Positions 10,510 through 61,190 of a stretch of 64,000 nt of DNA are shown here, piece by piece (within the stretch, counting starts at the first letter, position 1; each line of letters starts with the position of its first letter). The notes beneath the pieces were generated by a model. It made no database searches, was not told the DNA's origin, and was given only the letters and a program-made list of their open reading frames with translations. The stretch is from a virus. Location of the stretch: the IMG/VR virus record IMGVR_UViG_3300031371_000001, positions 1 through 64,000 of that record; one strand, written 5' to 3'. The position numbers and the translations under genes were made by a program.

Positions 10510-10532
10510 GGTTCCTCCGTTGTCTATATGGG

Positions 10533-10561
10533 GTTATACCACGATGGGAATCGGTTGTCAA
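10533..10561 (-). promoter_or_regulatory. sigma70-type promoter P3 with operator
   Basis: TTGACA-N17-TATAAC; spacer CGAT-TCCC-ATCG (10542-10553) in the same register as P1/P2. Confidence 0.85.
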
Positions 10562-30125: not shown

Positions 30126-30556
30126 TCGTCCAGGAAGAACGGTTCGGGAAGGGTCGGAAGCTCAATCACCCCAACGTCAACAAGCCTCCGGATCATCCTC
30201 GCCGCTTCCTTCGCCTCGCAAGCCGTGAATTTGACAAGTGTTCGATATCGCTTTTTCCTATCGCGAGTCGCCTTCAATGGTGCCGCGTGTTTTGAGACTC
30301 CACTAAACCTATATGGCAAATACATTAGAATCCGATCACCATCGAACCATAACGAAAGGAAAGCGGAGGGTGGATGGGTTCCACCGTTCAAGATCGTGAC
30401 GGTTCGCGCGTGCTGTTCCCCAAGGTGATCCTTGATCCAGAATTGCCCCGTGACGTCGAACCCCTCCTTCGCGAAGCAACGTCCGGGGAATAGTTGTCGG
30501 AATTCCTCCAGGAAGATCGCAACCGCTCGAAGCGCCGCTTCACTCTGATTCGACAA
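30110..30556 (-). CDS. hypothetical protein
   Basis: Fills the gap between the sigma-like gene and PHP; probable TTG start 30556 after GAGGAGG. Confidence 0.55.
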   Translation of the reverse strand: MSNQSEAALRAVAIFLEEFRQLFPGRCFAKEGFDVTGQFWIKDHLGEQHARTVTILNGGTHPPSAFLSLWFDGDRILMYLPYRFSGVSKHAAPLKATRDRKKRYRTLVKFTACEAKEAARMIRRLVDVGVIELPTLPEPFFLDEWRIL

Positions 30557-31034
30557 TGCGCCGCGCCTCCTCGATAGAACGAATGATCGCGGCGACAGAA
30601 ACGCCAAGATGCCGCGAGAGATCCAAGTATGAAGGGACTGTCGGAATCGGCTTGTCGACACGTTCGTAATAGTCGGACATTGCGCGCGGATCGAGTCGGA
30701 GTTTGATCACCTCCCGTGCCTCCGATGAGAGCGATTCGATCACTTCGTTGACGAAGACCTCCCCTTCAACGTCCGTCGCTTCGTCCTTCGGATCGTAGAA
30801 GTATCTAAAGTCCGAAAACTTGTGAAATGGGATCACGCCTCCCTCCGGATAGCGTTTCTTCGCGCGTTCCCTTTCGATGATCATTCCGAGTGCGTTTCGA
30901 ACCGTCCGGTTCCTGTATCCGGCCGGCTTGGATGCAACCGGGAGTTCGGCAAGTGCCGCCTCCTGTTCGAGATCCTCACTGTCGATTCCGTGTCCATAAG
31001 GGATGTAAAATCCCCGTGCCTTTCGTGCCATCAT
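30540..31034 (-). CDS. sigma-70-like phage transcription factor
   Basis: EDLEQEAALA (region 2-like); IESLSSEAREVIKLR...SYLDLSRHLGVS (region 4 HTH). Confidence 0.7.
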   Translation of the reverse strand: MMARKARGFYIPYGHGIDSEDLEQEAALAELPVASKPAGYRNRTVRNALGMIIERERAKKRYPEGGVIPFHKFSDFRYFYDPKDEATDVEGEVFVNEVIESLSSEAREVIKLRLDPRAMSDYYERVDKPIPTVPSYLDLSRHLGVSVAAIIRSIEEARRIVESE

Positions 31035-31049
31035 TTCCTCCGTTGTTCC

Positions 31050-32900
31050 CTACCTACCAAGCGCGCGCCGAAGCTTACGGAACAGGACCCCCGGCAGTTG
31101 CGAGAGATCGTCCACGGTAACGGCGTTCTTGTAATAGTTCGTGATCCCACTATACCGAAGTCCGATCGCGATCACCTCGACGCCCTTGTGATTGTCGATC
31201 CAGCCGGTGATCCGCTTCAAGTGCTGTTGCTGTTTCGTATCAGGTCCACAAATAGGCGATCCGTCCGACAGGACGAAAAGCACCTTGCGCGCCTCCGGGC
31301 GATGAAGAAGACGCTTCGCCGCCCACTCGACGGCTTCGCCGTCGCCGTTCTCGCAATCGGCTTGCGCCGATCCAAGCCGCGTCTTCTCGGTTTCCCATGA
31401 TTCCCCGAACGCCTTGTAAACGTTGAACCGGAAAGGGAGGGTCCTGTCGTATCCGTCGCGGCTCGGCGGCGTACCGCTGTAAACGTTCGTGAATCCGTTG
31501 ATCTCGAACTTGATCCCGATCTGATTCAGCGCCCGGGAAAGTGCGACGACGGCGGCGATCGTGTCGTCCATGTCCCCTGACATCGAACCCGATTCGTCAA
31601 TCAGGATCCCGACCGCTGTATCGGCATAACCGATTTCCCGCTTGTCGTCCCTCTTGAAAACCTTCGTGTTGAACCGGGCAAGCCTCGCAAGCTTCGTCCT
31701 ATCGATCTTCCCATGACGAAGCCCGTAATCCGTCGAGTGATCCGTTGACAGGAGGACAAGACGAAGGCGGCTGGCAAGTGCGCCAACAATCTTCTTCGCC
31801 TTTTCGTCACGAACCCTGAATCTCGCAACGTTCTTCGGCGCCCTGACGATCCTATCGTTTTGGAGTGCGATCGGATGGGTCGAGTAGACCCCGCGTGTTT
31901 CCTCCTCTGCAATCCGCTTCGTTTCTTTGTGAAAGGTCCCGGTTTCTCCGTCCGAACCGGACGCGGCCTTCAGCGCCTTGATCAATCCGGCCAGATTTTC
32001 GGCTTCCTCCTTCGTCAGCTTGATCGCCTTCCCGCCGCTCGCCGCTTCGCCTTCCTTCCCCTCGGAAGCCTCGACGCCAGCCGCGGAACCGCCTTCGCCT
32101 TCCTCCCCTTCGCCTTCGCCGTCCCCGCCGATCGTGATCACAAGGTCCCCCTCCGCTTCGTCGGCGGCCTTGCGCGCCTCCTCCGCTTCATCCCCCATTT
32201 CCTCCAGCCGATCGCAAAGCTCGATCGCAAGATCAAGCGTGTCGTCCGTCCAACGCGATTCTTTAGCCCGGGGAATGAAGTCGGAAAGATGCTCGATAAC
32301 GAAGGCCGCTCCCGCCTGAAGGATTTCATTCTTCGACTCACGAAGCGACGGCGACAGCGCCTCCGCGATGAAAGCCTTTCCAACGGCGTCGGCAAATTCG
32401 GGTGGCTTCGGCTCCGCTTCCAACTTCTCGATCATGAAGAAGCGAGTTCGAGTTAGGTTGACGTGGACACCGGCCCAACGCTTCATTCCCTCCGTCTCGA
32501 TCGATACGTCCTCCAAGACGTTCAACCACATTGGGAGGATCCCGTATTTCTCCGGGTTCGATTTCTTCAATTCGTCGGCCCGCTTCGCGCAAGCCTCCCA
32601 GGTTGCTGACTTCCTCTTGATCGCGTTCTTCAACGCCTTTTCGTTTCGGAGGACGTGCAACCATTCGTGATCGAGTTCCCCGTCAACGATCCACCGTTCG
32701 GCGTACATTTTCGGGAGCGTGATCGTTGAAGTCGTGTCAGTGTAACAGCCCGTCCCGAAGTTCACCTTGATCCCTGTGTTCTTCGAGAACACTCGCGCGA
32801 TCTTCTCGCAATACCTTTCATCAACTTTCTTGCGATAGTGATCGCCAACGTCGATCGTCAGTTCGGAAGGAAGCGGGGTTTCCATCGTTGCGGCCGACAT
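31050..32900 (-). CDS. CobT-like VWA-domain protein (AAA+ partner)
   Basis: DHEWLH and NVLED N-domain, acidic Gly/Glu linker, MIDAS DESGS, LSDG.P. Confidence 0.85.
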   Translation of the reverse strand: MSAATMETPLPSELTIDVGDHYRKKVDERYCEKIARVFSKNTGIKVNFGTGCYTDTTSTITLPKMYAERWIVDGELDHEWLHVLRNEKALKNAIKRKSATWEACAKRADELKKSNPEKYGILPMWLNVLEDVSIETEGMKRWAGVHVNLTRTRFFMIEKLEAEPKPPEFADAVGKAFIAEALSPSLRESKNEILQAGAAFVIEHLSDFIPRAKESRWTDDTLDLAIELCDRLEEMGDEAEEARKAADEAEGDLVITIGGDGEGEGEEGEGGSAAGVEASEGKEGEAASGGKAIKLTKEEAENLAGLIKALKAASGSDGETGTFHKETKRIAEEETRGVYSTHPIALQNDRIVRAPKNVARFRVRDEKAKKIVGALASRLRLVLLSTDHSTDYGLRHGKIDRTKLARLARFNTKVFKRDDKREIGYADTAVGILIDESGSMSGDMDDTIAAVVALSRALNQIGIKFEINGFTNVYSGTPPSRDGYDRTLPFRFNVYKAFGESWETEKTRLGSAQADCENGDGEAVEWAAKRLLHRPEARKVLFVLSDGSPICGPDTKQQQHLKRITGWIDNHKGVEVIAIGLRYSGITNYYKNAVTVDDLSQLPGVLFRKLRRALGR

Positions 32901-34059: not shown

Positions 34060-34100
34060 TGAACCCTCCGTTGTTCCGTTGTTTCCCATAACCTACTAAC

Positions 34101-34129
34101 CTTATAGCCTGTTACCTTTCGAGAGTCAA
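34101..34129 (-). promoter_or_regulatory. sigma70-type promoter P4 with degenerate operator
   Basis: TTGACT-N17-TATAAG; spacer CGAAAGGTAACA in the same register; GGAACAACGGAGG leader. Confidence 0.75.
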
Positions 34130-35141: not shown

Positions 35142-36529
35142 GCCTCCGCGCCGCCCCCTCCTTCTTCGCCGTCGTCGTCTTCGCCCGCTAGTTCCTCGAA
35201 GAACATCGTTGGACGATCGACCTTCACGGGAACAAGGAATTTGTCTTCACCGTCTCGATACTTCGCCAGATATAGATCCAGAAACCGCTTCACGTCCTCG
35301 CGGCCCTTCGTCTTGCTCCGGTTGATTGAAATAATTATGTCCGCAATCCTCGACTTGTCGTAAGACTCCGCGGCGCCTTCGGCTTTGATTAGACGATCAG
35401 CCCATTCCTTCGACGCATGAGTTGACGTAATGATCGCGCAATCGAGTTCTTGTGCCAACGCTTTCAAGTCCCAATAGACGGCGGCTTGTTCGTGTCGAAA
35501 CGCCTCGAATTTTCGAACGCTTCGCATATGATCGGCACTGTCCACGATCAACAAGTCGGTTCCCTCGATCCCCCTGTCCTTCAACGAAGTCATGATCGAA
35601 CGAAGAGTATTCCCGTCGCATTGATGAACCGGGACATGGACTATCTGAACGCGCCCGTTTAGCTTGTGAGCGGCAAGCCGTTTCTTCGCATCCAAGACTT
35701 CTAGTTGTTCGGGTTCAAAGTCGAAGTTCTTGAACAGTCGCGCCGATAGGCGGCTCCATCGTGCATCGTATCGAGTAGCGACTTGATATTCCGACATTTC
35801 AAGCGTGACGTGCGTTACTTGAAACCCCATCGCCGCCGCCTTGAAACCGGAGTGAACAAGGATCATCGACTTTCCGCGCGCGGTTGGCGCAAGCATCAAA
35901 GCCAACTCGCCGCGCGCCACCCCGCCGTCAAGTGCTTCGTCTATCTTGGCGAACCCGGTTGGAACAGTCCGGAATGGATCGTCACTCGATTCAAGCCGCT
36001 TCGCTTGTCGTTCGTCCAATTCTCCGAACCAGTCCACGATCCGAACGCCTGTCGGCCGCGCGTCCCTGACGACAGCTTTCCCGACAGCTTCGTAAGCGCG
36101 ATCGGGATCCTTCTCGATCGCTTCGGTAGCTTCAACCAAAGCTATATGAAGGCGCCGCGTTCGAAGCCAGTTGTTCAGTTCTTCAAGTGCAAGCCGTGGA
36201 TAACCTTCTTCGTCGTCGTCAAAGACCTTCGCTATCAGTTCGAGCTTTTCTTCTGATCCACGCTTCGAACGTGCCGCCCGTCGTTCGAGAACGAGACGCG
36301 GCACGGCTTCATGGTGCTTCGTCCACACGTCAACGATCTGTCGATACACCCACTTCAGATCACGATCCGGCAAATCGTCGGAATCGAGCGACGTGATCAC
36401 GGACTGGAGGTAACGAGTGTCTTTCAAGCAATGATGAAACGTTTGAATCAGAATTTCGGCGGCGCTTTCGCCAATCCCGGGATCTTCTAGCATAGCGCCT
36501 CCTCGAACGAACCGCGAAGAAGCCGACAT
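35138..36529 (-). CDS. DnaB-like replicative helicase
   Basis: PTGF..ID....GG, APTARGKS, TLEM, IVDSAD, AKYRDG; start may be slightly downstream (MLED). Confidence 0.9.
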   Translation of the reverse strand: MSASSRFVRGGAMLEDPGIGESAAEILIQTFHHCLKDTRYLQSVITSLDSDDLPDRDLKWVYRQIVDVWTKHHEAVPRLVLERRAARSKRGSEEKLELIAKVFDDDEEGYPRLALEELNNWLRTRRLHIALVEATEAIEKDPDRAYEAVGKAVVRDARPTGVRIVDWFGELDERQAKRLESSDDPFRTVPTGFAKIDEALDGGVARGELALMLAPTARGKSMILVHSGFKAAAMGFQVTHVTLEMSEYQVATRYDARWSRLSARLFKNFDFEPEQLEVLDAKKRLAAHKLNGRVQIVHVPVHQCDGNTLRSIMTSLKDRGIEGTDLLIVDSADHMRSVRKFEAFRHEQAAVYWDLKALAQELDCAIITSTHASKEWADRLIKAEGAAESYDKSRIADIIISINRSKTKGREDVKRFLDLYLAKYRDGEDKFLVPVKVDRPTMFFEELAGEDDDGEEGGGGAEA

Positions 36530-37923
36530 TTCAAGCCTTCGGCCCGATAGTGCTTCAAGCGTTGCTTCGAGTGCTTTCGAAAGTCCTTGTGATTCACGTC
36601 TGCGAAGTCGAGAACGAAAGCCGTTTCCTTGCCTTCGTGCGCCGTCATGTTCCGGAGCTTTTGAATCGTGCTTCCCCGGGACGCGCCGCCGCTTGCGTTG
36701 ATCACGATTTCAGCCGGGGGAAGGTCGACCGTTTCGTTGAAGACGGTTCCGACAAGCACGCAAAGATCGGAGTCGGGATCGCAAAAGCTGTCGTAAGCTT
36801 TTCGGCGTTCCCACAATTCGACGGGTCCTGTCAGGACGGCGTGCTTGACCTTGCGCGCCTTCAAGAGTTCCCCGATCGCCTTCGCTTGTTCAATTCGACT
36901 TGTGACGACGATCACTTTCTTCCTCGCGGCGGAACAGACTTCAGCGGCGTCAACGATCTTGCGATTGCGGAAGGGATGATTCAAGAGTTCCTTGAACGCC
37001 TCTTGATAGTTTGGAGCTTCGATCCTCCCTTTGAATGGAAGGAAGAAAACCGTTGGCTCAACAAGGTAGCCGAGTTCGATCAATCGTCGCATTGAAATCG
37101 AGTAGACGATCGGACCCGCGATCGCCCGCAACCAAATATCCTCCTCGTTTACTTCGCGTTCGTCAAGGTAAATCGTGCCGCTGAATCCCACTTTGTACGG
37201 AACGTCAAGCCCCTCGACAAACGAACGCCAGCCCTTGCCCTTCTTTCCTTTCGTGTAGTGGTGGAATTCATCTATCAACAGGAGGGAAACGTCCTTGAAA
37301 AGTGCCTCCGCTTCACGCTTATCGAACGACGACGATTGAACGGACGCGATAGTGATCGGGCGTGCCGATCGCTTCCCGTCACCGAAGACTCCGACCTCCC
37401 CGCGGCCGAATACCTTTCGGAATACCTTGTATGTTTGCTGAAGCGCGCTTTTCGATCCGACAAGGACGACGCAACGGCGCCCGTGCTTGTGAGCTATTCG
37501 AGCTTGAATGATCGTCTTCCCGCTTCGGATCGGGGACCGGACGATTCCGTGAAGATTCCCGATCCCTCCCCTGAAGACGGATTCGACGGCGGCCGTTTGA
37601 AAGTCGCGCGCCTCGAATTCCGCCGGCCACTCCGGACACTCGATCGCCTTGTCCGGGAAGTCCCTCCCTTCGATAATCTTGAAATCGCCAAGCGCCTCCA
37701 AGCTTTCGATCGCTTCGTCCCACAATCCGAAAGGCAAGTGTGCGCCCTTGCTGTTGACACGAAGAAGGCGGACCCTTCCATCCCAACGCCCCTCCCGGAA
37801 CGCCGGCGTGAACTGGAAGCCTTTGACCCTGTAGCTTGTGCGCCTGTCAAGTCGTCGGAGCGCCGCCCGTGAAATGGCCCCCCGAATTAGAAGCCTTTGA
37901 GAAGTGATCCCTAGCCTGTTCAC
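36487..37923 (-). CDS. superfamily 2 helicase (UvsW/XPB-like)
   Basis: RDFQ, PIRSGKT, IDEFHH, GFSGT, ETVDLP, LDFAD. Confidence 0.88.
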   Translation of the reverse strand: MNRLGITSQRLLIRGAISRAALRRLDRRTSYRVKGFQFTPAFREGRWDGRVRLLRVNSKGAHLPFGLWDEAIESLEALGDFKIIEGRDFPDKAIECPEWPAEFEARDFQTAAVESVFRGGIGNLHGIVRSPIRSGKTIIQARIAHKHGRRCVVLVGSKSALQQTYKVFRKVFGRGEVGVFGDGKRSARPITIASVQSSSFDKREAEALFKDVSLLLIDEFHHYTKGKKGKGWRSFVEGLDVPYKVGFSGTIYLDEREVNEEDIWLRAIAGPIVYSISMRRLIELGYLVEPTVFFLPFKGRIEAPNYQEAFKELLNHPFRNRKIVDAAEVCSAARKKVIVVTSRIEQAKAIGELLKARKVKHAVLTGPVELWERRKAYDSFCDPDSDLCVLVGTVFNETVDLPPAEIVINASGGASRGSTIQKLRNMTAHEGKETAFVLDFADVNHKDFRKHSKQRLKHYRAEGLKCRLLRGSFEEALC

Positions 37924-37934
37924 TCAATCGACCC

Positions 37935-37984
37935 AAAAAGAAAATTTCGCCCTTCCCTTTCGGCCGAAGCCTCCAGGGAAGGGC
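37935..37984 (-). terminator. intrinsic terminator ending the late/lysis transcript
   Basis: 10-bp stem (37949-37958 / 37975-37984) followed on the minus strand by GAAATTTTCTTTTT. Confidence 0.6.
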
Positions 37985-38050
37985 TAGGTTTGGGAACAAC
38001 GGAGGTGTTCGGCCTCCTACTTGATCACTATGGCAAACGAACGACGGAGA
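37985..38050. promoter_or_regulatory. inverted copy of the early-gene leader motif (candidate antisense/decoy RNA element)
   Basis: Plus strand TAGGTTTGGGAACAACGGAGG (37985-38005) with a second degenerate copy CGAACGACGGAG; opposite orientation to all other copies. Confidence 0.45.
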
Positions 38051-38051
38051 T

Positions 38052-38426
38052 TCAAGGAATGTCCTTACAAGATGCCGTCTTCTTCGAATGGCACTCGATC
38101 CGATGTTTGAGTAACTTTCGATCGGTATCGCCGTCAACGGCTTCGAGGATTTCTTCTTTCATCACCTTCTGTTCGTCAGAAAGATCGGACACGTCGTCGG
38201 ACACGTCTTCGATCGCATCGGTGTTCTTGTTCACCTGTTCGATCACTTCGTATTTAGTATCCTTGATGTCCGCTCGAAGCGTGTTCGTCATTTGGAAATA
38301 GAAAGTGATCCCTCCACCGATGATCACAATGATCTGAATTGCAAGAGGGATCGCGATCTTTGCGTGTCCATTGATGACGAATTTCCGGGGGGGTATGCTC
38401 GGTTTGACTTCGCTACTAGATGACAT
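38052..38426 (-). CDS. membrane-anchored coiled-coil protein (lysis accessory; i-spanin/holin-like topology)
   Basis: One TM segment then a coiled coil with terminal Cys pair; last gene of the lysis cluster. Confidence 0.55.
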   Translation of the reverse strand: MSSSSEVKPSIPPRKFVINGHAKIAIPLAIQIIVIIGGGITFYFQMTNTLRADIKDTKYEVIEQVNKNTDAIEDVSDDVSDLSDEQKVMKEEILEAVDGDTDRKLLKHRIECHSKKTASCKDIP

Positions 38427-38459: not shown

Positions 38460-38684
38460 TTATATCGGAAGCCCCAAGGCTTCGCGTTGCGCCGTCTTGA
38501 TCTTGTCGTTGAATTCGGTTCGGTATTCGTCAGGGATCAGTTTGCGGACCTCATGATCCGTCACGTCGTCGCCAGCCATCGCCTTGACAACGAAATCTCG
38601 AATCTTCGGAGCAATGTACTTGACGACTTCGAACACGAGACTTGCGATAGCCGCGGCTTGCGCGGGATCGATCTTCTTCGTCAT
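38460..38684 (-). CDS. small hypothetical protein (lysis cluster)
   Basis: MTKKIDPAQ..., GGAGG RBS, ATGA overlap. Confidence 0.7.
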   Translation of the reverse strand: MTKKIDPAQAAAIASLVFEVVKYIAPKIRDFVVKAMAGDDVTDHEVRKLIPDEYRTEFNDKIKTAQREALGLPI

Positions 38685-39259
38685 GATCCACCTCCGGAAA
38701 GGTATTCGTAACAGACCGAATCTTTCAACGCCTCGAAGGTGAATGCGAATTCGATCTTCGGCCGCCCGATCAATCCCGACAGGAACCCCCAAACCTTATC
38801 GAGCATTTCCGGAAGCTCGATCCCCCATAGCTTCAGCATATTGATCACCCCGTCGATCGCGGCGATCACTGAAACGGAAAGGTCAAGCCATTTCGACTTA
38901 CTGGATAGAACGTCACTCCAATCGGCGTCGGTTGAAGTTCCGAGTTCCTTCCGAGTCTCGTATGTATCGAGCGCCTTTTCCCAAAGGAGGATCGCGTCGA
39001 GTGCCTCCGTCAGAAGGACCCTCGTTTGAGCCAGCATGAAGGCCGCGATCTTGTTCCGGCAATACGCAACGGTATCCTCCGGGGGAGCATTCCCGTAAAG
39101 ACCGTCGATCGTCTTGTCGGTTGTGTCGGCCGCGATTGCGGACGCTTCGACGGCTAGTCTCGCATCCTTGATCCCGTTGTGCTGTTTGCGGACAGCACAA
39201 GCGACAGACGTTAGAGAAAAGGCGAGAAGGACAACAAGGAAAAGGCTTCGCCGCTTCAT
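38681..39259 (-). CDS. lipoprotein (lysis cluster)
   Basis: MKRRSLFLVVLLAFSLTSVA-C lipobox-like signal; ATGA overlap. Confidence 0.7.
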   Translation of the reverse strand: MKRRSLFLVVLLAFSLTSVACAVRKQHNGIKDARLAVEASAIAADTTDKTIDGLYGNAPPEDTVAYCRNKIAAFMLAQTRVLLTEALDAILLWEKALDTYETRKELGTSTDADWSDVLSSKSKWLDLSVSVIAAIDGVINMLKLWGIELPEMLDKVWGFLSGLIGRPKIEFAFTFEALKDSVCYEYLSGGGS

Positions 39260-39834
39260 GATCTCTTTTCCCTTTCGTTCTTCGACGTGACAACGGAAAT
39301 GAATTCGTGGAATCCGCTCGATCCGAGTCCAGCAAGGACGCCAGCAAGGATCGTCGCAAAGACGCTTTGCCCCGTGTAGAAAGCGGACACGGCGCCTCCG
39401 AATCCACCGAAGATCGCGGCGAGAACAGGGCGAAGCCATTTGATCCCATTCGCCTTCAGGAACCGATCGAGGGGTCCGAACTTCGATGCAAGAACGAGCA
39501 AGTAAGCGATCATCATGACGCCAACAAGCCAGCCGAATTGTTGCCAGTTGTCGATCGTCTTCATGACGGTGCCGCCGATTTCTTCGATCTCCGTCTCGCC
39601 TTCAGGAACGACGGGAACGACGGGCGCCTCCTTGATCTCGGCTTTCGCAACGGGCGCCGCAACGATTGGAGCCGCAACGGGCGCCGGCGTCTCGACGGGC
39701 GCCGGGACGGCAACGGGATTGTCGGGAGTGACAGCCGCGGGCGCCGAAGCGTCCGGGGCTTGCGCCACGGTTGCCGGCGCAACCGAAAGGAAGCACGCGG
39801 CGAGAAGAACGAACAACAGACTTCGAGGCTTCAT
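39256..39834 (-). CDS. holin-like membrane protein with signal peptide and Pro/Ala linker
   Basis: N-terminal signal, PA-rich linker, three C-terminal hydrophobic segments with GVLAGLGSSG.HE; adjacent to the endolysin. Confidence 0.6.
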   Translation of the reverse strand: MKPRSLLFVLLAACFLSVAPATVAQAPDASAPAAVTPDNPVAVPAPVETPAPVAAPIVAAPVAKAEIKEAPVVPVVPEGETEIEEIGGTVMKTIDNWQQFGWLVGVMMIAYLLVLASKFGPLDRFLKANGIKWLRPVLAAIFGGFGGAVSAFYTGQSVFATILAGVLAGLGSSGFHEFISVVTSKNEREKRS

Positions 39835-39859: not shown

Positions 39860-39888
39860 ACGATAGAAGCTTATTCGCCCGTCGTCAA
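39860..39888 (-). promoter_or_regulatory. candidate internal promoter for the holin/lipoprotein genes
   Basis: TTGACG-N17-TATCGT upstream of an AAGGAGG RBS. Confidence 0.45.
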
Positions 39889-40776
39889 GATTGCACGGGC
39901 GGCGTTGACATCGAATGGCGGTTGTGGATCTACCTTCTTCGGTGTGTAATCGTTATGTCTTCCGATCAACTCGACAGGGATCGAATAGGCTTCAACGACA
40001 GCCCGCAAGACTTCGATCCACGTCTGAACCTGAAGTTCAGAAGGTTTCTGATAGACACGCTTCCCAACCGTGACGGTTGGGAGGTTCTTCCAGGACGGGT
40101 GAGCCTTCAGACGTTTCGCTCCGATCTGTCCGACGTTCATAATCTCGATCCCAAAGCCTACAGCATTCGGGGACCACACGATCCGATCCTTTCCGTGCGC
40201 GTCCGTGACGTGCGGCCATTGCACGTTTTTTCCGTCGAACCGAATGTCTCCGTCGAGAGTCTTGATCACCTGCCCCTTGTATTTCTTGCGCCACTCCCAA
40301 AGCTTGCCGGGACCGGCATTCCAGCTTCCGACAGTTTCGAAGTTCGGCGTGTATTGGCAGACGAAAACGCGGCCGTCCTTTTCCATCCCGATGCAAATTT
40401 CCCAACTTGCCTTTCGAGGCTTCCCCGCGTTTTGCAAGCAAAGCGAAACGGCGTCAGGGATGAATCCGATCGCTTCGAGATCCGATCGCAGTTCGTCAAC
40501 GCAAGACGGAACGATCTTCGCCTTTGCAAGTAGCTTGTCGAGATCCTTGATCGTGCGATGCGAAGCGATAACCGCCGTGTAATGATTCTGGACGACAAGA
40601 GGCTTGCCCCCGGTCCACTCCGGGCGATCGTAATACTTCCAGCTTGTCGGAGCATAGATCACGTCCGGGCCGATCAAGCGCCCGTCTTCGATCCGATACC
40701 TTCCGGGAGATTCCATCGAACCCGCGTTTGGAATCGGCTTCGGTCCTCCTGGAATCAAATCAAGCCTGTCGTCCAT
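39871..40776 (-). CDS. endolysin, N-acetylmuramoyl-L-alanine amidase (Amidase_2-like)
   Basis: NHYTA, W.AG, N...GIEI.N, Q......L......Y.I....I.RH.D....K.DP. Confidence 0.8.
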   Translation of the reverse strand: MDDRLDLIPGGPKPIPNAGSMESPGRYRIEDGRLIGPDVIYAPTSWKYYDRPEWTGGKPLVVQNHYTAVIASHRTIKDLDKLLAKAKIVPSCVDELRSDLEAIGFIPDAVSLCLQNAGKPRKASWEICIGMEKDGRVFVCQYTPNFETVGSWNAGPGKLWEWRKKYKGQVIKTLDGDIRFDGKNVQWPHVTDAHGKDRIVWSPNAVGFGIEIMNVGQIGAKRLKAHPSWKNLPTVTVGKRVYQKPSELQVQTWIEVLRAVVEAYSIPVELIGRHNDYTPKKVDPQPPFDVNAARAILTTGE

Positions 40777-44300: not shown

Positions 44301-44921
44301 ATCGGCGGCGACAAGTGAAGGCGTCGATTGTCCAAGCGTCCCCGTGATCGTGACAATGTTTTGCGTCCCACTCCAAGTGATATTCACAGTCTCGAATGCA
44401 GTTGCGGGAACATTCGTCGCCGCCTTGCCAGTCAACCAAACCGTCGCACTTCTTCCAGCGTGCGAAGTTCCAGGGCCTCCGAGCAACGTGTCAACGACGA
44501 ATTGAAGTCCAGGTCCGGGAAAAGTTACGGAATCAGGGTTGCCAAGATCCCCGATCGCTTCTTCCGTGTTCTCATATTCAAATTCACCCGTGCGCGGGTT
44601 CGTTTCGATGTTTTGATCCGGGACTTCCTGATAAAAGAAGCCGACGTCATACCATTGAAGATTCGTGTTCTCGAAAGACCAGTTGCCGGCAACTGCGGCA
44701 AGGTGTCTTCCCTGATCGTCCATTCCGTCAAGTGCCGAAAGGTCGAACATATCGGGAGCGGATCCAGTGATCGCCACGGCTGAAAATACGCCTTCACCGA
44801 AGACAAGGGAAATCAGATCCGCGCTTTTGTCCTTCAAGTAATCGAAAAACTTGGTTTGAAGCGCAACGTCACCAATGATCTTTTTTCCGTATAGGTGAAC
44901 GAAGCTATCGCCCGTTGCCAT
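41355..44921 (-). CDS. tail fibre/tailspike with C-terminal right-handed beta-helix (putative depolymerase)
   Basis: 1188 aa after the baseplate wedge genes; TVG..G.F...Q.AI entry motif and many I.GN/V.GN repeats. Confidence 0.85.
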   Translation of the reverse strand: MATGDSFVHLYGKKIIGDVALQTKFFDYLKDKSADLISLVFGEGVFSAVAITGSAPDMFDLSALDGMDDQGRHLAAVAGNWSFENTNLQWYDVGFFYQEVPDQNIETNPRTGEFEYENTEEAIGDLGNPDSVTFPGPGLQFVVDTLLGGPGTSHAGRSATVWLTGKAATNVPATAFETVNITWSGTQNIVTITGTLGQSTPSLVAADYEVLVDGPSVRAVGAPGTLKGTPGLCYIGAVQGAGAGFAPSTFDTTQQTVFDVVADVAEVLYKDAHGKVKIRVTADALDVDEPQISVWDNSLGNVLTITDLRAWFSKDAEFDNSTTKTPAIKFDPAGGSNVDWEIFADETVPAFYFGRNDAQAATRTVRFENLGAGGGVGALFTHDVEIGDGSAVISPNFVLTNSFGSLDQYLNGPSLFMNANYAAADFSIFMQNLDATYELKLNVEGEIRSDKGLFVANFTSMQFQDSLMGSPVALSEVGYASLNTYHQSILGGIDDHLDEFAAALGNTIISGMNVTVTLTAPIRIVFAAGEAIVYGKRVEWASPQLVTLPASSQGWVYVASNGGLVFTTVANTAYDGGAVLAYVETDGSSVTLWRDARRMTAHGADDVLEYTVGDSGHFPDFQTAIDYLDMLSQTSSASTRRRRYRLRVIGDVPTYSGNGITVPATIEGLEIIGSFEYRLEWDGDGPYFYLSDGFSGFSIRQAIFYYTNTGTPAIDNAYVVNANAVTTTGQFLEMDGVYLIPSAGLCYGGTTGLVEATGATFAFLIIKGCFVYGDLALFDGAGGSFDYVYIEQNAVSKGSTGGTPSTTVITIDVGDGSSRVFIRDNYLQNDMGIGQHLEGIKCINSEEVLVAHNVIIGDPAPYDHGIDLGGTENCQIIYNGCLNKLGATSAFMVNAILCDSQSFVCYNAVANGGDSGDASSRTAIEVASTATIGGTFTTVVGNQVQGYRGSNAFGVQVSGAFQTDGARVEANQVFTIGATGIICPTKDGVAIVGNYVGGAGVDSAIESGITAGPGTDYLIVGNHVYCYDDGVDGITLSGAAGTIVEGNIISVYENAASTSIGIDLGGEDGIVVIGNSIEGGETGISGYPTSERCVISNNYLQDQAVEGILLDGALNSVGNNVIYLPGSYGINTTSGADNCTIYGNVVKTPGTIGINLVAGADNNEVIANQASTADAGTGNDLAHNITPP

Positions 44922-55771: not shown

Positions 55772-58060
55772 CTATGCCAACGACTCGAAGACGCCAGCCT
55801 TGCCGATCGTGATAATGAACCTTTCCACGGTGTCGGAAAGACGCAACGTGATCTCAGCGTTCAAGTCGCCAGCGGCGCGCGTCAAGTCGGTGTTGATTTC
55901 GTTGTCCACCTTGATCGAAGCGGCCTCCTCGAACGTGTCGCCGCGGATCGCACGCTTGACCCATTCGGGAATGAAAAACGATTTGAGTGCGGACAACGCC
56001 TCTTGTTGCGTCACGGGATCGTTGATCGCGAACACAATCCAATCGAAGTTTTCGAGGAGGACGTGTTCATAGTGCGACATGAGTTCCCTTTGATGCTTCC
56101 ACTTCCAGGAAGGATCGGAAGCAACGGTTCGATCGCCCCAAATGACGAAGTTGCCCTTGACCTTTTTGATCACCCCGATGCCGCGCGGGTTGAGCTTTTC
56201 TTCATTCAGGACCGTATCGCCGGTCGGCAGTTCAACGATTCGCGGAAGCGTCACGTCGATACCGGCGGCCGCCTTGTGGAATCCGTTGTAATTCTTCGCA
56301 ACCAGCGCCTCCCTCCCGTGGATCGCTCCAGTCGAAGAAATGGTCTTCAAGGCGGTCAGTTCCTCCACTTGCACCTTGCCGAACGACGGGAACGAAACAA
56401 CGGCGAAGTCATTTCGTCCAAGCGTGTCGTCAATGTGAGAAATCGCGGAATCTTCGTCCGTCGTCCCGGAGGGGATCTCGTATCGCCATTCATAGCCGAA
56501 GGCTTCGGCCAACGCGGCGCCCGCCTTCTGAACGGCTGTAGCCGTGACACCAGGGGAGGCCAGCTTGATCAAGCCCTTGTTCTTCCCCTGGAATTGCTTG
56601 ATCAACGTCGTCGCCGGATTCATGGCGGACGTGTAATCGGCGTCCGCAAGGTCCGCGATCCCGTCGTACCCTCCCTCCAGTTCGGAAGGGAAGGACGCCA
56701 TGAAATCCTTTCCGGCGGCGGTAACTGCCGTCAGGTCAATGGAAGCGTCCACCGTGATCGTGTCGTGATCGTTGTCCGTCACTCGATAGGACAACTTCGG
56801 CGTGTCCGTGTAGTTCGGGAACAGTTCATGTCCGATCAATGCGTCCGGTTCGAGGGGCATATAATCGAGCGTGATCACGTCACCGGCGGCGAGGATGGTT
56901 CCGCCATTCACGACGGAGATCGGGGGAACATACGGGCAATCAGGTGCCCACGCGCCGCCGATCGTGTGCGTCGGGCCGATCGCGCCGAACTTGTCGGATA
57001 CCCAATCGATCCCGGTTGCCAGCGCGTCCACCGTTCCGACAAGGCGATCGGGAACCATGTCGTCAGTCGTCGCGCCAAGCGTGACGGTCGGATCGGCGCC
57101 CGTGACGGAAGCGACGACGTGTTGGAAAAGCTCCCGCGTCAGGATATTCGCGGACACGACGTCGACAACCCCAAAGGCGTTGGCGGGTCGAATCTCCGGG
57201 GTGTAACCTCCGGTCCAGAGGTTTTCAACCAAGATTTCGTAATTCGCCCCGTCTTCATTGACGACGGCTTCAACGTTGTTCTTCTTCGTGGGATCTTGGT
57301 TACAGTTCGGGAACGGCTTGATAAGCGCGCCGTCAACGTAACATTCGATCCCGTATTCGTTCGTCGGATCGTCTTCCCCGCCTTCGAGGAACTTGACGGA
57401 AAGCGCCTTGCCTTCGTTGTCCAGCTTCAAGAGATATCCGAGATCGCCTCCACCTCCAGCCGTCCAGTCGGTTTTCATGGTTGCGTCGGCTTCGACCGTG
57501 ACAACGCCGGCAGTCGTGTTCCCGATGATCTTGTATGACTTGGTTGGCACTTCGTCCAGGACGATATACCCGCCGACCCATTCGTCGGTCAGCATGGTAA
57601 GGCCGGTCGTGAGAGTCGTTTCCGTGATATCGCCGGCGCCGGAAACTTCGTTCCAAAGGCGATTTTTCTTCCCACCCCAACGGCCTCCGTTGTGAGCCGT
57701 CACCTTCAGGATCTTCGTCAGGGTTGCCCCCTCCTTGCGATTCCAGAAGGTAAGTTCCGACTTCCTTTCGTTGCCGTCCGTGACACGAATCAACCAGAGT
57801 TCCCCGGCGCCTTGTGAGTGTTGCCAGAAATCTTCGCAAGCGTCCGGGCCGACAAGCGAGAGATCGTCAAGGCGAGTCCCGCACTTGCGGAACAGATCGC
57901 GGGATCCGTTCGTGGGGATCAACTTGTCCATGTCCCCCTTTTCGAGAACGGCAAAGTAGCAAGTCACGCCAAGCGGCGCTTGCTCGATCGGCTTGGAAGC
58001 TTCCTTTTCTACAACCACGACACCTGCCGCAAGCGTGGGTCCAAAGCGCCTTTGAGCCAT
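55772..58060 (-). CDS. tail sheath protein
   Basis: GV.V.E N-terminus; HKAAAG, LNP.GI, IWGDRT, VFAIND, ERFII. Confidence 0.93.
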   Translation of the reverse strand: MAQRRFGPTLAAGVVVVEKEASKPIEQAPLGVTCYFAVLEKGDMDKLIPTNGSRDLFRKCGTRLDDLSLVGPDACEDFWQHSQGAGELWLIRVTDGNERKSELTFWNRKEGATLTKILKVTAHNGGRWGGKKNRLWNEVSGAGDITETTLTTGLTMLTDEWVGGYIVLDEVPTKSYKIIGNTTAGVVTVEADATMKTDWTAGGGGDLGYLLKLDNEGKALSVKFLEGGEDDPTNEYGIECYVDGALIKPFPNCNQDPTKKNNVEAVVNEDGANYEILVENLWTGGYTPEIRPANAFGVVDVVSANILTRELFQHVVASVTGADPTVTLGATTDDMVPDRLVGTVDALATGIDWVSDKFGAIGPTHTIGGAWAPDCPYVPPISVVNGGTILAAGDVITLDYMPLEPDALIGHELFPNYTDTPKLSYRVTDNDHDTITVDASIDLTAVTAAGKDFMASFPSELEGGYDGIADLADADYTSAMNPATTLIKQFQGKNKGLIKLASPGVTATAVQKAGAALAEAFGYEWRYEIPSGTTDEDSAISHIDDTLGRNDFAVVSFPSFGKVQVEELTALKTISSTGAIHGREALVAKNYNGFHKAAAGIDVTLPRIVELPTGDTVLNEEKLNPRGIGVIKKVKGNFVIWGDRTVASDPSWKWKHQRELMSHYEHVLLENFDWIVFAINDPVTQQEALSALKSFFIPEWVKRAIRGDTFEEAASIKVDNEINTDLTRAAGDLNAEITLRLSDTVERFIITIGKAGVFESLA

Positions 58061-58062
58061 GA

Positions 58063-58914
58063 CTAAACCTCCGTTTGCCTTTCAGCAATTAAAGCGCGAA
58101 AGTATTGTGTCCAATACTCCCGATCGTGCAAGTTAGTTTTCGAATGGCAAGAATGGCAAAGCGTGATCAAGTTCTTTGGATCAAGATTCGCCTTGTCGTA
58201 ATCTATGTGATGGACACTCAAGGACTTGCCTTCTTCGTCCTGTTGCTTACCGCATTCGACGCAACGATAGCCGTCCCTTTCCCTTATAAGTTCTTTAAAC
58301 TTATTCGTCCATCCTATCGGATACGGCGCAAACGAAGAACCGCCCTTCCATGCCGAAGAATCAGGGCCGGATTGAACCGGCTTCCTTCCAATTGCGTAGG
58401 CTTCAAGTACAGCATTTGAAATGCGCTTCTTTGTTTCTTCTGAATGCTTACAACCAATGCGCGGATCCGGCTGTTGCATCCTAGAAGCGCGAAGCTTTTT
58501 CTTCGTTCCTTCTGAATGCGATTTGCCGAAGAATGGGTTTGCTTCGCCCCGAACCATTGCGCTAGTTGTCTCGCTCATTTTGCGCTTGGACGCTTCAGAG
58601 TGTTTCTTGCCTTGCATTGGATGGACAATCGAACCTTCGGTATAACGCCGCTTCAAGGTTTCCGAAATCTTCCTCCGTTGTTCTTCAGAAATCGAAATTC
58701 CATTGTTGTGCGGCACGTTGCCTTTTTTGAACCTTCCGCTTCCTGGATTCGCGCGCACACCTTCAGATATCTTCCTCTTGTGTTCTTCGGAGTGCTTCTT
58801 CCCAAGTCTTGCGTTGACTTGCCGCGTGCGGTGTTCGGGATCTTGCCAACTCTTTTTGTGCGAAGCGGACATTTTTGCCCGTGCTTCTTCGCTATGTCGG
58901 CTTCCCTTTTTCAC
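58063..58914 (-). mobile_element. free-standing NUMOD3-repeat HNH homing endonuclease
   Basis: Repeated KHSEExKxKIS/MS (NUMOD3); RDGYRCVECG...VHHID....N....NLITLC.SCH; AT-richer than its flanks; probable GTG start 58914. Confidence 0.88.
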
Positions 58915-60798: not shown

Positions 60799-61190
60799 TA
60801 CTTCACGGGCGATCGATCGTGATAGAAGATCCGGACAAGGGTTTGACCGTCTTGATCCGTATATCCGGCCTTGTATTCAAGGCGAGTGACATAATAGACG
60901 ACGGTTCGCTTCCCGACCTTCACGATCTTGTCCCCGATGTTGATCGTGATCCCCGCCTTGTCTAGATCATGCGTCCTCGCAAGAACGTAGCCCTCCGCAA
61001 GTTCCTCCCGTCCGCCGGGATTCATTGCAAGTTGATCATGTCGCTTGTTCGACAGTTGCGCGCGGATCGTCACGGTCGATCGAACCGGGGATCCGACAAC
61101 GGTTCGGGTTCGCGGATCCGTGATCGTCTTCGTGTCGTCCTTCTGTTCAATGACGACGTTGACAGGATGGATCAGATTGGGGAGGACCAT
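60798..61190 (-). CDS. head closure protein
   Basis: Size, position, GD.I pattern. Confidence 0.6.
   Translation of the reverse strand: MVLPNLIHPVNVVIEQKDDTKTITDPRTRTVVGSPVRSTVTIRAQLSNKRHDQLAMNPGGREELAEGYVLARTHDLDKAGITINIGDKIVKVGKRTVVYYVTRLEYKAGYTDQDGQTLVRIFYHDRSPVK

Follow-up and report, generated by a model that had tools for sequence, protein, structure and literature searches.

A candidate anti-leader RNA upstream of a strong terminator between the lysis and replication genes of an uncultivated salt-marsh phage

The lysis–helicase spacer

The window analyzed here is the first 64 kb (64,000 nt) of IMG/VR virus record IMGVR_UViG_3300031371_000001, a 100,651-bp sequence from a salt-marsh metagenome that represents an uncultivated phage; positions beyond 64,000 lie outside the window and are given as genome positions. 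At ~100 kb the record has a CheckV completeness of 98%, its minus strand carries nearly all genes, and the non-coding share of the genome is 6.3%. Among cultured phages, megablast returned no match and tblastn none above 26% identity (best ~25%), and no DNA of close relatives was found in IMG/VR (by protein, profile, and DNA-pattern searches), JGI metagenome contigs, or GTDB genomes.

The locus, which we refer to as site A, is a 128-nt non-coding spacer (37924–38051) in which the minus strand carries, in order, a promoter-like cassette, a GGAGG/CCUCC hairpin, a predicted single-stranded stretch complementary to the leaders of other phage genes (the anti-leader), and a terminator. On its upstream side is a minus-strand lysis cluster with an amidase gene (39871–40776) and a holin-like gene (39256–39834), both assigned by family match, and, as its last member in the ORF list, a 124-aa ORF (38052–38426) with one predicted membrane helix. 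This ORF had no family match, and its codon-usage log-odds, from a model trained on 15 long genes, is +0.18, where real genes score 0.225 ± 0.08. Downstream on the same strand, a UvsW-like superfamily-2 helicase gene with Pfam and PHROG matches (36487–37923) is the first of a helicase/DnaB/primase block. Its homologs P0002–P0004 are 62–64% identical, the N-terminus MNRLGITSQ is kept in P0003 and P0004, and its GTG at 37923 lies 11 nt past the U tract of the terminator without a Shine-Dalgarno sequence. The initial annotation had placed the site in the 3′ UTR of the lysis transcript; the spacer is also the 5′ UTR of the helicase gene.

The spacer begins within a 44-nt element on the minus strand (38012–38055), termed here the class-2 cassette, which is composed of a −35-like hexamer TTGAAT (38055–38050), 17 nt, TG-CATAGT (−10 at 38032–38027), and GATCAAGUAGGAGGC; the TGA stop codon of the 124-aa ORF (38054–38052) falls within the hexamer. 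Its layout makes an extended −10 promoter with an orphan Shine-Dalgarno sequence possible. The promoter pattern agrees with the consensus at 8 of 12 positions, and equally good patterns are expected by chance about 3.4 times per genome. The cassette is collinear with the spacer before GTG 91354 of the genome (site B; 23/25 in the core), which has the GTG at the place where the class-2 GGAGG is followed by CAC and no start codon, and it is also related to genome 76853–76825, at the locus termed site C below (score of 32, compared with 16.6 ± 2.5 for shuffles). The second, degenerate copy of the anti-leader that had been noted near here was located at 38030–38049 (minus strand CUCCGUCGUUCGUUUGCCAU, plus strand ATGGCAAACGAACGACGGAG), and by local alignment it is closest to the leader at genome 78962–79010, behind the promoter at genome 79039. 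Because it overlaps the −10 element and spacer of the class-2 cassette, it would be present only in transcripts that arrive from upstream.

Past the cassette, minimum-free-energy and centroid folds both contain hairpin 1 (GGAGG-CCGAACA-CCUCC, minus strand, 38001–38017), in agreement with the GGAGG/CCUCC hairpin described initially; its two arms are the orphan Shine-Dalgarno and the CCUCC at the end of the anti-leader. The anti-leader itself (37985–38005) reads CCUCCGUUGUUCCCAAACCUA on the minus, coding strand (38005–37985) and TAGGTTTGGGAACAACGGAGG on the plus strand, and 16 nt of it (GUUGUUCCCAAACCUA) are predicted to be single-stranded between hairpin 1 and the terminator. The intrinsic terminator (minus strand, 37935–37984) has the stem GCCCUUCCCU...AGGGAAGGGC with an inner GGC-UUCG-GCC, followed by GAAA and the U tract UUUUCUUUUU (37944–37935). 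Its stem (37984–37949) has a predicted energy of −26.4 kcal/mol, and in a genome-wide scan for hairpins of −14 kcal/mol or stronger followed by T4-N0-2-T3 it was the sole hit and is the strongest terminator of the genome; the 4-nt GAAA between stem and U tract is atypical. An 87-nt RNA modeled from this region (38024–37938) is predicted to fold into hairpin 1, a 16-nt open seed, and the terminator. Rfam, including its C4 family, gave no relevant match at E-values up to 10 in positions 37700–38300, and none at the gathering threshold in the window.

Several other constructions of the spacer were considered and rejected. A bidirectional terminator is a poor fit, as the plus-strand hairpin is followed by CUAGGUUUGGG, which makes a poor U tract. 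A small minus-strand ORF from a TTG 13 nt past the orphan GGAGG would cross the terminator and run out of frame into the helicase gene. No invertase accompanies the inverted 14-mers and contigs show no alternative joints, which speaks against an invertible segment between them. Assembled DNA contigs from three sequencing runs matched the phage only as the source contig itself and as a few 151-nt pieces identical to it, which contained no variants and none of which covered site A. A search for public RNA runs that contain the phage gave none.

The plus strand offers little coding potential at this site. With a usable ribosome-binding-site spacing defined as a start codon 4–12 nt after GGAGG, the plus-strand GGAGG has none, the next start codons being TTG at 38022 (16 nt away) and ATG at 38030 (24 nt away). 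ORFs on this strand score −0.10 to −0.22 in codon-usage log-odds, with antisense frames at −0.25 ± 0.17; this antisense-type codon usage argues that no plus-strand gene is hidden at site A, and the initial view that the plus-strand GGAGG is not a ribosome-binding site therefore stands.

A leader family and its complement

The sequence to which site A is complementary belongs to a family of leaders. Putative sigma70-type promoters of the form TTGAC-N18-TATAA, with a palindromic spacer, occur on the minus strand at 801, 1706, 10561, and 34129, and at genome positions 64075, 79039, and 95012. Their predicted transcripts start with ATGGCAACGGGAAAC and continue with at least one GGGAA(A)CAAC unit before GGAGG-N5-ATG, and the promoter/leader cassettes at 801, 1706, and genome 79039 are nearly identical. 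In full, the leader unit reads (UAGGUUU)GGGAACAACGGAGG.

The anti-leader of site A is the exact complement of the leader 14-mer GGGAACAACGGAGG. On the minus strand this 14-mer occurs at 730–743 and 31037–31050 (14/14 each) and at 34065–34078 (13/14), and outside the window at genome 78315–78328 (13/14); its only plus-strand occurrence is at 37992–38005. The initial annotation was thus accurate on the exact complement before the terminator and on the match to the CobS-like leader at 34065. When up to two mismatches were allowed we counted five matches, compared with a mean of 0.84 in shuffled sequence, and none of 100 shuffles reached five. A further 12/14 copy at 58672 was rejected as a leader; it sits within a gene. 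A DNA-pattern search of IMG/VR for the 14-mer followed by ATG returned 10 unrelated contigs, a count at or below chance, without protein similarity.

Four leader-bearing genes emerge as predicted targets. For the 117-aa ORF with its ATG at 724, the predicted target is the leader at 730–766, behind the promoter at 801–774. The second target comprises the leader and Shine-Dalgarno of a sigma-like ORF (30540–31034), where the unit occurs in an intercistronic position (31037–31050; UAGGUAGGGAACAACGGAGG-AA-AUG). This ORF was initially annotated as sigma-like; a Pfam search gave no match, but in the ESM Atlas it resembles sigma-70 r2/r4 clusters (feature score 0.95–0.96, structure TM 0.62), so that it is sigma-like only by language-model and structure look-alikes. 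In the same operon is the gene for a CobS/MucR-finger AAA+ ATPase, whose 5′ UTR (34065–34096, promoter at 34129–34102) could pair with about 26 nt of the candidate small RNA, over a stretch that begins close to the predicted transcription start and ends at the start codon. The fourth is a 459-aa gene at genome 78309, whose leader contains the unit as direct repeats (genome 78366–78315). The 10-nt match reported at 10514–10523 in the leader of the P3 operon is also present, as a partial and weak match (ACAACGGAGG, 10514–10524, minus strand) in the leader behind the promoter at 10561–10534, and it falls outside the top predicted targets.

The extent of the similarity is well delimited. At site A the likeness to the leaders stops sharply at ~21–26 nt with no residual similarity in the flanks, and for the CobS-gene leader it spans the interval between the approximate predicted transcription start and the start codon, which corresponds to the 5′ UTR without any promoter or coding part.

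Complementarity and predicted pairing energies

The complementarity of site A to the leaders is beyond chance. In a word test we took the 19 11-mers common to at least three translation start regions and sought their reverse complements on the coding strand. These were found at two loci only, 38005 (14 nt) and genome 76925 (11 nt). The observed count was 5; shuffled words averaged 0.77 and never exceeded 4, and none of 200 shuffled sets reached 5.

Predicted pairing energies single out the same sequences. We co-folded the 87-nt model RNA with the 171 start regions preceded by a Shine-Dalgarno sequence and subtracted the unfolding cost. The four leader-bearing genes rank first at a net energy of −23 kcal/mol, with the next best at −17 kcal/mol and a mean over all 171 of −6.7 ± 4.4, and when 5,030 windows covering the coding-strand transcriptome are ranked, the same four leaders occupy four of the top five loci. 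In the reverse direction, a scan of 20,124 coding-strand windows of 30 nt returned site A and site C as the best predicted partners of the four leaders, at −32.6 kcal/mol each (next-best window −28.3 kcal/mol, background −11.2 ± 3.7). On the opposite strand the best window reached −28.9 kcal/mol once the leaders' own complements were set aside. Both top windows are non-coding and located directly 5′ of a G+C-rich hairpin.

A second module and elements in distant relatives

Site C (genome 76925–76872; scan window 76936–76907) is a second module of anti-leader plus hairpin. It occupies part of the 3′ UTR of the 459-aa gene, the last gene of the operon read from the sigma70-like promoter at genome 79039, and its order is stop codon, AUUCC-CCGUUGUUCCC-CCGUUGC, a G+C hairpin of 12–13 bp, UUCGUUUAU, a third copy of the class-2 cassette, and the ATG of the next gene. 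An 11-nt anti-leader core is common to sites A and C, and their hairpins and flanks are unrelated. The predicted partners of site C are the leaders of the genes at 724 and 1638 and at genome 78309 and 78962. Site B (genome 91316–91330, plus strand) was tried as a third anti-leader and rejected: it has a 13-nt complement to the 5′ end of the leader and is no outlier in the energy scan.

We also examined the whole genomes of two distant relatives, G2 and G3, whose helicases are 34–35% identical to that of the source phage. In G3, a complete genome of 105 kb, the promoters follow the same design, and the start region GGAGAACCGGCCATG is found at ten or more genes. Only one same-strand antisense copy of this motif is present (TGGCCGGTTCTC at 44698), and it is intergenic and inside a hairpin with a 10-bp stem. 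In the shuffled-word test 2 of 200 sets reached the observed count, a result that we grade as significant; co-folding shows no net gain in this case because the hairpin that holds the antisense copy is stable.

In G2 the corresponding element (57955–57885) consists of a stop codon at 57955, a 30-nt pyrimidine stretch, and a G+C hairpin, and it is an inverted homolog of the ~60-nt hairpin-plus-leader cassette of gene 60248. Six early start regions are predicted to pair with it at −28 to −34.5 kcal/mol, compared with a mean of −12.2 ± 7.2. By raw duplex energy and in the word test it is no outlier, however, and we grade this case as equivocal. Since the antisense copies in G2 and G3 each match the leader motif of that genome, which differs from the one here, the theme appears to recur with different sequences, and judging from sequence the elements in G2, G3, and site C point to a recurrent design. 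From the G2 element it is also clear that such elements can arise by plain inverted duplication.

Candidate function and alternative explanations

We tentatively propose, at what we judge to be slightly less than an even chance, that a terminator-proximal small RNA masks the translation start regions of the leader family in trans. On this reading the spacer is a non-coding boundary between transcription units on the minus strand. The candidate RNA would either form the 3′-terminal part of transcripts from the lysis cluster or be an ~87-nt species begun at the cassette (38055–38027). Ending at the terminator, it would present a 5′ GGAGG/CCUCC hairpin, an exposed pyrimidine stretch of 16–21 nt, and a terminator hairpin with a U tail; as predicted, this layout of hairpin 1, open pyrimidine stretch, and terminator is the anatomy of a base-pairing small RNA. 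The single-stranded segment would nucleate on a leader just upstream of the Shine-Dalgarno sequence, and pairing would then extend into CCUCC, opening hairpin 1 and covering the leader GGAGG. Four mRNAs would thereby be closed to 30S binding, those for the sigma-like factor and the CobS/MucR ATPase and those of the 117-aa gene at 724 and the 459-aa gene at genome 78309, and the site C module would do likewise for an overlapping set of leaders. We infer the existence and stability of this RNA, its start point, its pairing in vivo, the repression, and its timing.

The initial annotation had suggested a trans-acting antisense RNA that is made late and silences early genes. The first part of this suggestion is consistent with a non-coding site on the transcribed strand, 5′ of a strong terminator, with a predicted open seed and the leaders as its top partners; the second is not sustained. 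Site C falls within the 3′ UTR of an early-type operon (promoter at genome 79039) and site A may have a promoter of its own, which leaves the proposed timing unsupported. The promoter-like element at site A likewise means that the RNA need not be a by-product of a late transcript. A search for a late-promoter motif in the intergenic regions at 38–75 kb gave nothing clear.

Some features weigh against a trans-acting RNA. The CCUCC end of the anti-leader is, in the predicted fold, paired within hairpin 1, and the promoter reading of the class-2 cassette is weak. The spacer may also be mainly an attenuator: with the helicase GTG 11 nt beyond the U tract, expression of the replication genes would need read-through of the terminator, and in such read-through RNA the seed could possibly pair in cis with the helicase start region.

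The main alternative, which we consider a serious possibility although on balance unlikely, is that the anti-leader is a neutral by-product, an inverted duplicate of a mobile leader cassette that has no pairing role in a spacer that is only a terminator/promoter junction. The leaders belong to repeated, mobile-looking promoter/leader cassettes, so an inverted copy can arise without selection, and recombination shuffling such cassettes (the near-identical ones at 801, 1706, and genome 79039 among them) would supply it. The patchwork character of the spacer agrees with this, with its first 44 nt collinear with another intercistronic spacer and an orphan Shine-Dalgarno without a start codon, as does G2, in which the anti-leader and hairpin are plainly an inverted copy of a ~60-nt cassette; such inversions do happen. 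A decaying larger duplication is nevertheless a poor fit to a 14/14 core with sharp edges and no similarity in the flanks. Nor would neutrality lead one to expect that both antisense copies fall in the ~6% of the DNA that is non-coding, on the coding strand, and directly before a hairpin; that sites A and C have a core in common amid unrelated hairpins and flanks; or that another phage with a different motif (G3) shows the same arrangement.

A less probable explanation, to which we assign a small but appreciable chance, is that the spacer works in cis. Transcription of the helicase–DnaB–primase block would start at the class-2 promoter, the terminator in the 5′ UTR of that block would be an attenuator, and the pyrimidine stretch would pair locally with the orphan GGAGG or the helicase start, setting termination or helicase translation, so that the match to the leaders is secondary. 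Attenuation is a live alternative because the region is also the helicase 5′ UTR, and the helicase gene starts just past the U tract without a promoter of its own. In all four modules (site A, site C, G2, and G3) the gene that follows lacks a Shine-Dalgarno sequence, site C likewise folds into an extended stem, and lytic phages often have a terminator in the 5′ UTR soon after a promoter (PMC10914365). In the minimum-free-energy fold of the read-through RNA, UUGUUCCCAAACCUA pairs with UGGGUCGAUUGAGUGAACAG across the terminator, but the z-score of this fold is only −1.67, and the predicted duplex of seed and helicase start (−14.9 kcal/mol) is far from the −24 to −32 kcal/mol predicted for the leaders. 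Inspection revealed no convincing antiterminator alternative structure, and a function in cis leaves the 14/14 identity to distant leaders unexplained.

It is quite improbable that GGGAACAACGG is instead an orientation-independent DNA site at leaders and terminators, bound by a phage or host protein such as the MucR-finger ATPase or an HTH/sigma-like protein. Conservation in both orientations would follow from such a site, and the direct repeats of the unit in the leader of the 459-aa gene are iteron-like; the unit has no dyad symmetry, however, the early promoters already have a separate palindromic operator in their spacers, and placing the antisense copies on the coding strand only, in 3′ UTRs beside hairpins, would be needless for a DNA site. 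A function on the plus strand, whether as the ribosome-binding site of a small gene or as the initially suggested decoy RNA titrating a leader-binding protein such as CsrA, is scarcely credible despite two tandem leader-like units (37985–38005 and 38030–38049), the second with GGAG 9 nt before an ATG at 38059, since the first unit lacks a start codon at usable spacing, the ORFs have scores typical of antisense frames and are contained entirely in the 124-aa gene, and there is no promoter-like site upstream, the sole plus-strand match being at 37649.

We retain masking in trans by a terminator-proximal RNA as the preferred reading of site A. Its extension to the phage group as a whole is more speculative, and we regard it as possible rather than probable. 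Under this extension, a shared leader and ribosome-binding motif on many early and regulatory genes would be matched by one or two anti-leader RNAs, each associated with a terminator or hairpin, that mask the whole set simultaneously, the sigma factor mRNA included, and the motif/anti-motif pairs would co-evolve (GGGAACAACGGAGG here, GGAGAACCGGCC in G3, and (GGAACGG)n-AGAUC in G2). If true, masking of this kind would explain why near-identical leaders are kept on unrelated genes, and matched leader/anti-leader pairs could be reused as orthogonal translational switches.

Comparison with known systems

Most known phage small RNAs act on genes of the host or, in temperate switches, on one phage gene; in bacteria, terminator-proximal base-pairing small RNAs derived from 3′ UTRs include CpxQ, DapZ, and SroC. 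Phage examples are VpdS and PreS (review PMC12197685). The candidate RNA resembles both groups in its predicted open seed, Rho-independent terminator, and U tail, and in its position behind a stop codon, whether or not an internal promoter is present; the A/C-rich (AAC)n tracts of the predicted targets may in addition resemble ARN motifs. It differs from them in that its predicted targets are the phage's own leaders with one repeated motif, not host genes, and in the presence of two modules per genome. If our reading is correct, one short RNA would recognize the leader motif of a whole set of the phage's own genes, the sigma factor included.

The T4-type PeSL elements are mobile cassettes of a repeated stem-loop and an early promoter that are found at gene boundaries and are able to recombine. 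They are direct repeats, and we know of no description of an antisense relation to leaders. Were site A a scar of cassette shuffling, it would document the movement and inversion of regulatory cassettes in this phage group.

The nearest known system is the c4 antisense RNA of P1 and P7. As described in PMC8198154 (after Citron & Schuster 1990), c4 is a phage small RNA that blocks translation by pairing in trans with the icd/ant ribosome-binding region; it derives by processing from the 5′ part of the operon under its control, pairs through two short loop sequences, and functions in lysogenic immunity. Site A is similar in being encoded near regulatory genes on the same strand and, as proposed, in acting on the phage's own mRNA. 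Unlike c4, it would present a linear seed of 16–21 nt beside a terminator and address several dispersed targets, and there is no sign of lysogeny.

The arrangement of the spacer also has a counterpart in lytic Pseudomonas phages, in which a promoter and a terminator within ~90 nt upstream of a gene yield an abundant short RNA together with some read-through; such short terminated 5′ UTR RNAs are common in lytic phages and were found by sequencing, with no known targets (PMC10914365). The order of elements at site A is the same; here the transcript is predicted only, whereas a set of targets is evident.

In T4, the RegB endoribonuclease, which cuts GGAG, and the translational repressor RegA shut off a class of the phage's own mRNAs via the Shine-Dalgarno region (PMC3014915). 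These are proteins rather than RNA and have no homology to the anti-leader element, and we view them as functional analogs. If the trans-acting reading is correct, the anti-leader would constitute a simple and portable post-transcriptional off-switch for a class of genes, an RNA counterpart of RegA and RegB.

Anti-leader modules and class-2 cassettes

A second module carrying an antisense copy of the shared ribosome-binding leader (the anti-leader) lies outside the window, at positions 76932-76825 of the whole 100,651-bp record (genome coordinates; L088 about 826-933). In this module, site C, the stop codon of a 459-aa gene is followed by CCGUUGUUCCC and a 12-13-bp G+C hairpin with UUCGUUUAU, after which come the third copy of the class-2 cassette (a promoter-like element) and the ATG of the next gene. 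Another copy of the cassette, site B, occupies the plus strand at genome 91306-91353 (L087 3307-3354), flanked by a denV-like endonuclease V gene on one side and a 69-aa ORF on the other; the upstream portion of this site, CUUCCCGUUGCCAU, complements the first 13 nt of the class-1 leader (AUGGCAACGGGAA). The gene directly 3' of each anti-leader module lacks a canonical Shine-Dalgarno in all four cases (window 37923; genome 76829; 57822 in G2 and about 44740 in G3, two distant relatives). Two window terminators, at 1953-1940 and 37944-37931, have similar tails, GGGCG..TTTTCTT(G/T)TTGGG. In the lysis cluster, the ORF at window 38681-39439, which follows the holin-like gene, has an internal start and then MKRRSLFLVVLLAFSLTSVAC, a lipoprotein-type signal; it may encode a spanin component.

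Leaders and start regions in other genomes

The ribosome-binding site of G3 (105 kb; L092, L093) is unusually uniform: at least 10 genes, including those at 67502, 70842, 87115 and 92634, have an identical 15-nt start region, GGAGAACCGGCCATG. Around 60983-61010 of G2 (L098), the Shine-Dalgarno of a minus-strand gene is sequestered by a cis hairpin, CUCCGUC-N7-GACGGAG. In three unrelated IMG/VR contigs (L099, L103 and L106), where the leader 14-mer acts as a ribosome-binding site, its complement stands in front of it (TTGTTCCC-TGAT-GGGAACAACGGAGG), and the two form a local hairpin immediately 5' of the Shine-Dalgarno.

Leader transcripts and their promoters

The predicted +1 of leader transcripts coincides with an ATG about 7 nt 3' of the -10 box (window 766-722 and 34089-34057; genome 79002-78960 and 78366-78305). 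In four of five cases this ATG shares the reading frame of the annotated start, an excess that is not significant, and in-frame initiation would add Asn/Gly/Thr-rich extensions (MATGNNNTGTTEGTM...); the "leaders" may be translated as part of leaderless mRNAs. Between the -35 and -10 of the sigma70-type promoters (window 801-774, 1706-1678, 10561-10534 and 34129-34102; genome 79039 and 95012) lies a dyad, CCGAT-N4-6-ATCGG, and G3 promoters share the design (TTGACT-TCCAATTCAATTGGA-N-TACAAT). The spacer dyad resembles an operator for a dimeric repressor.
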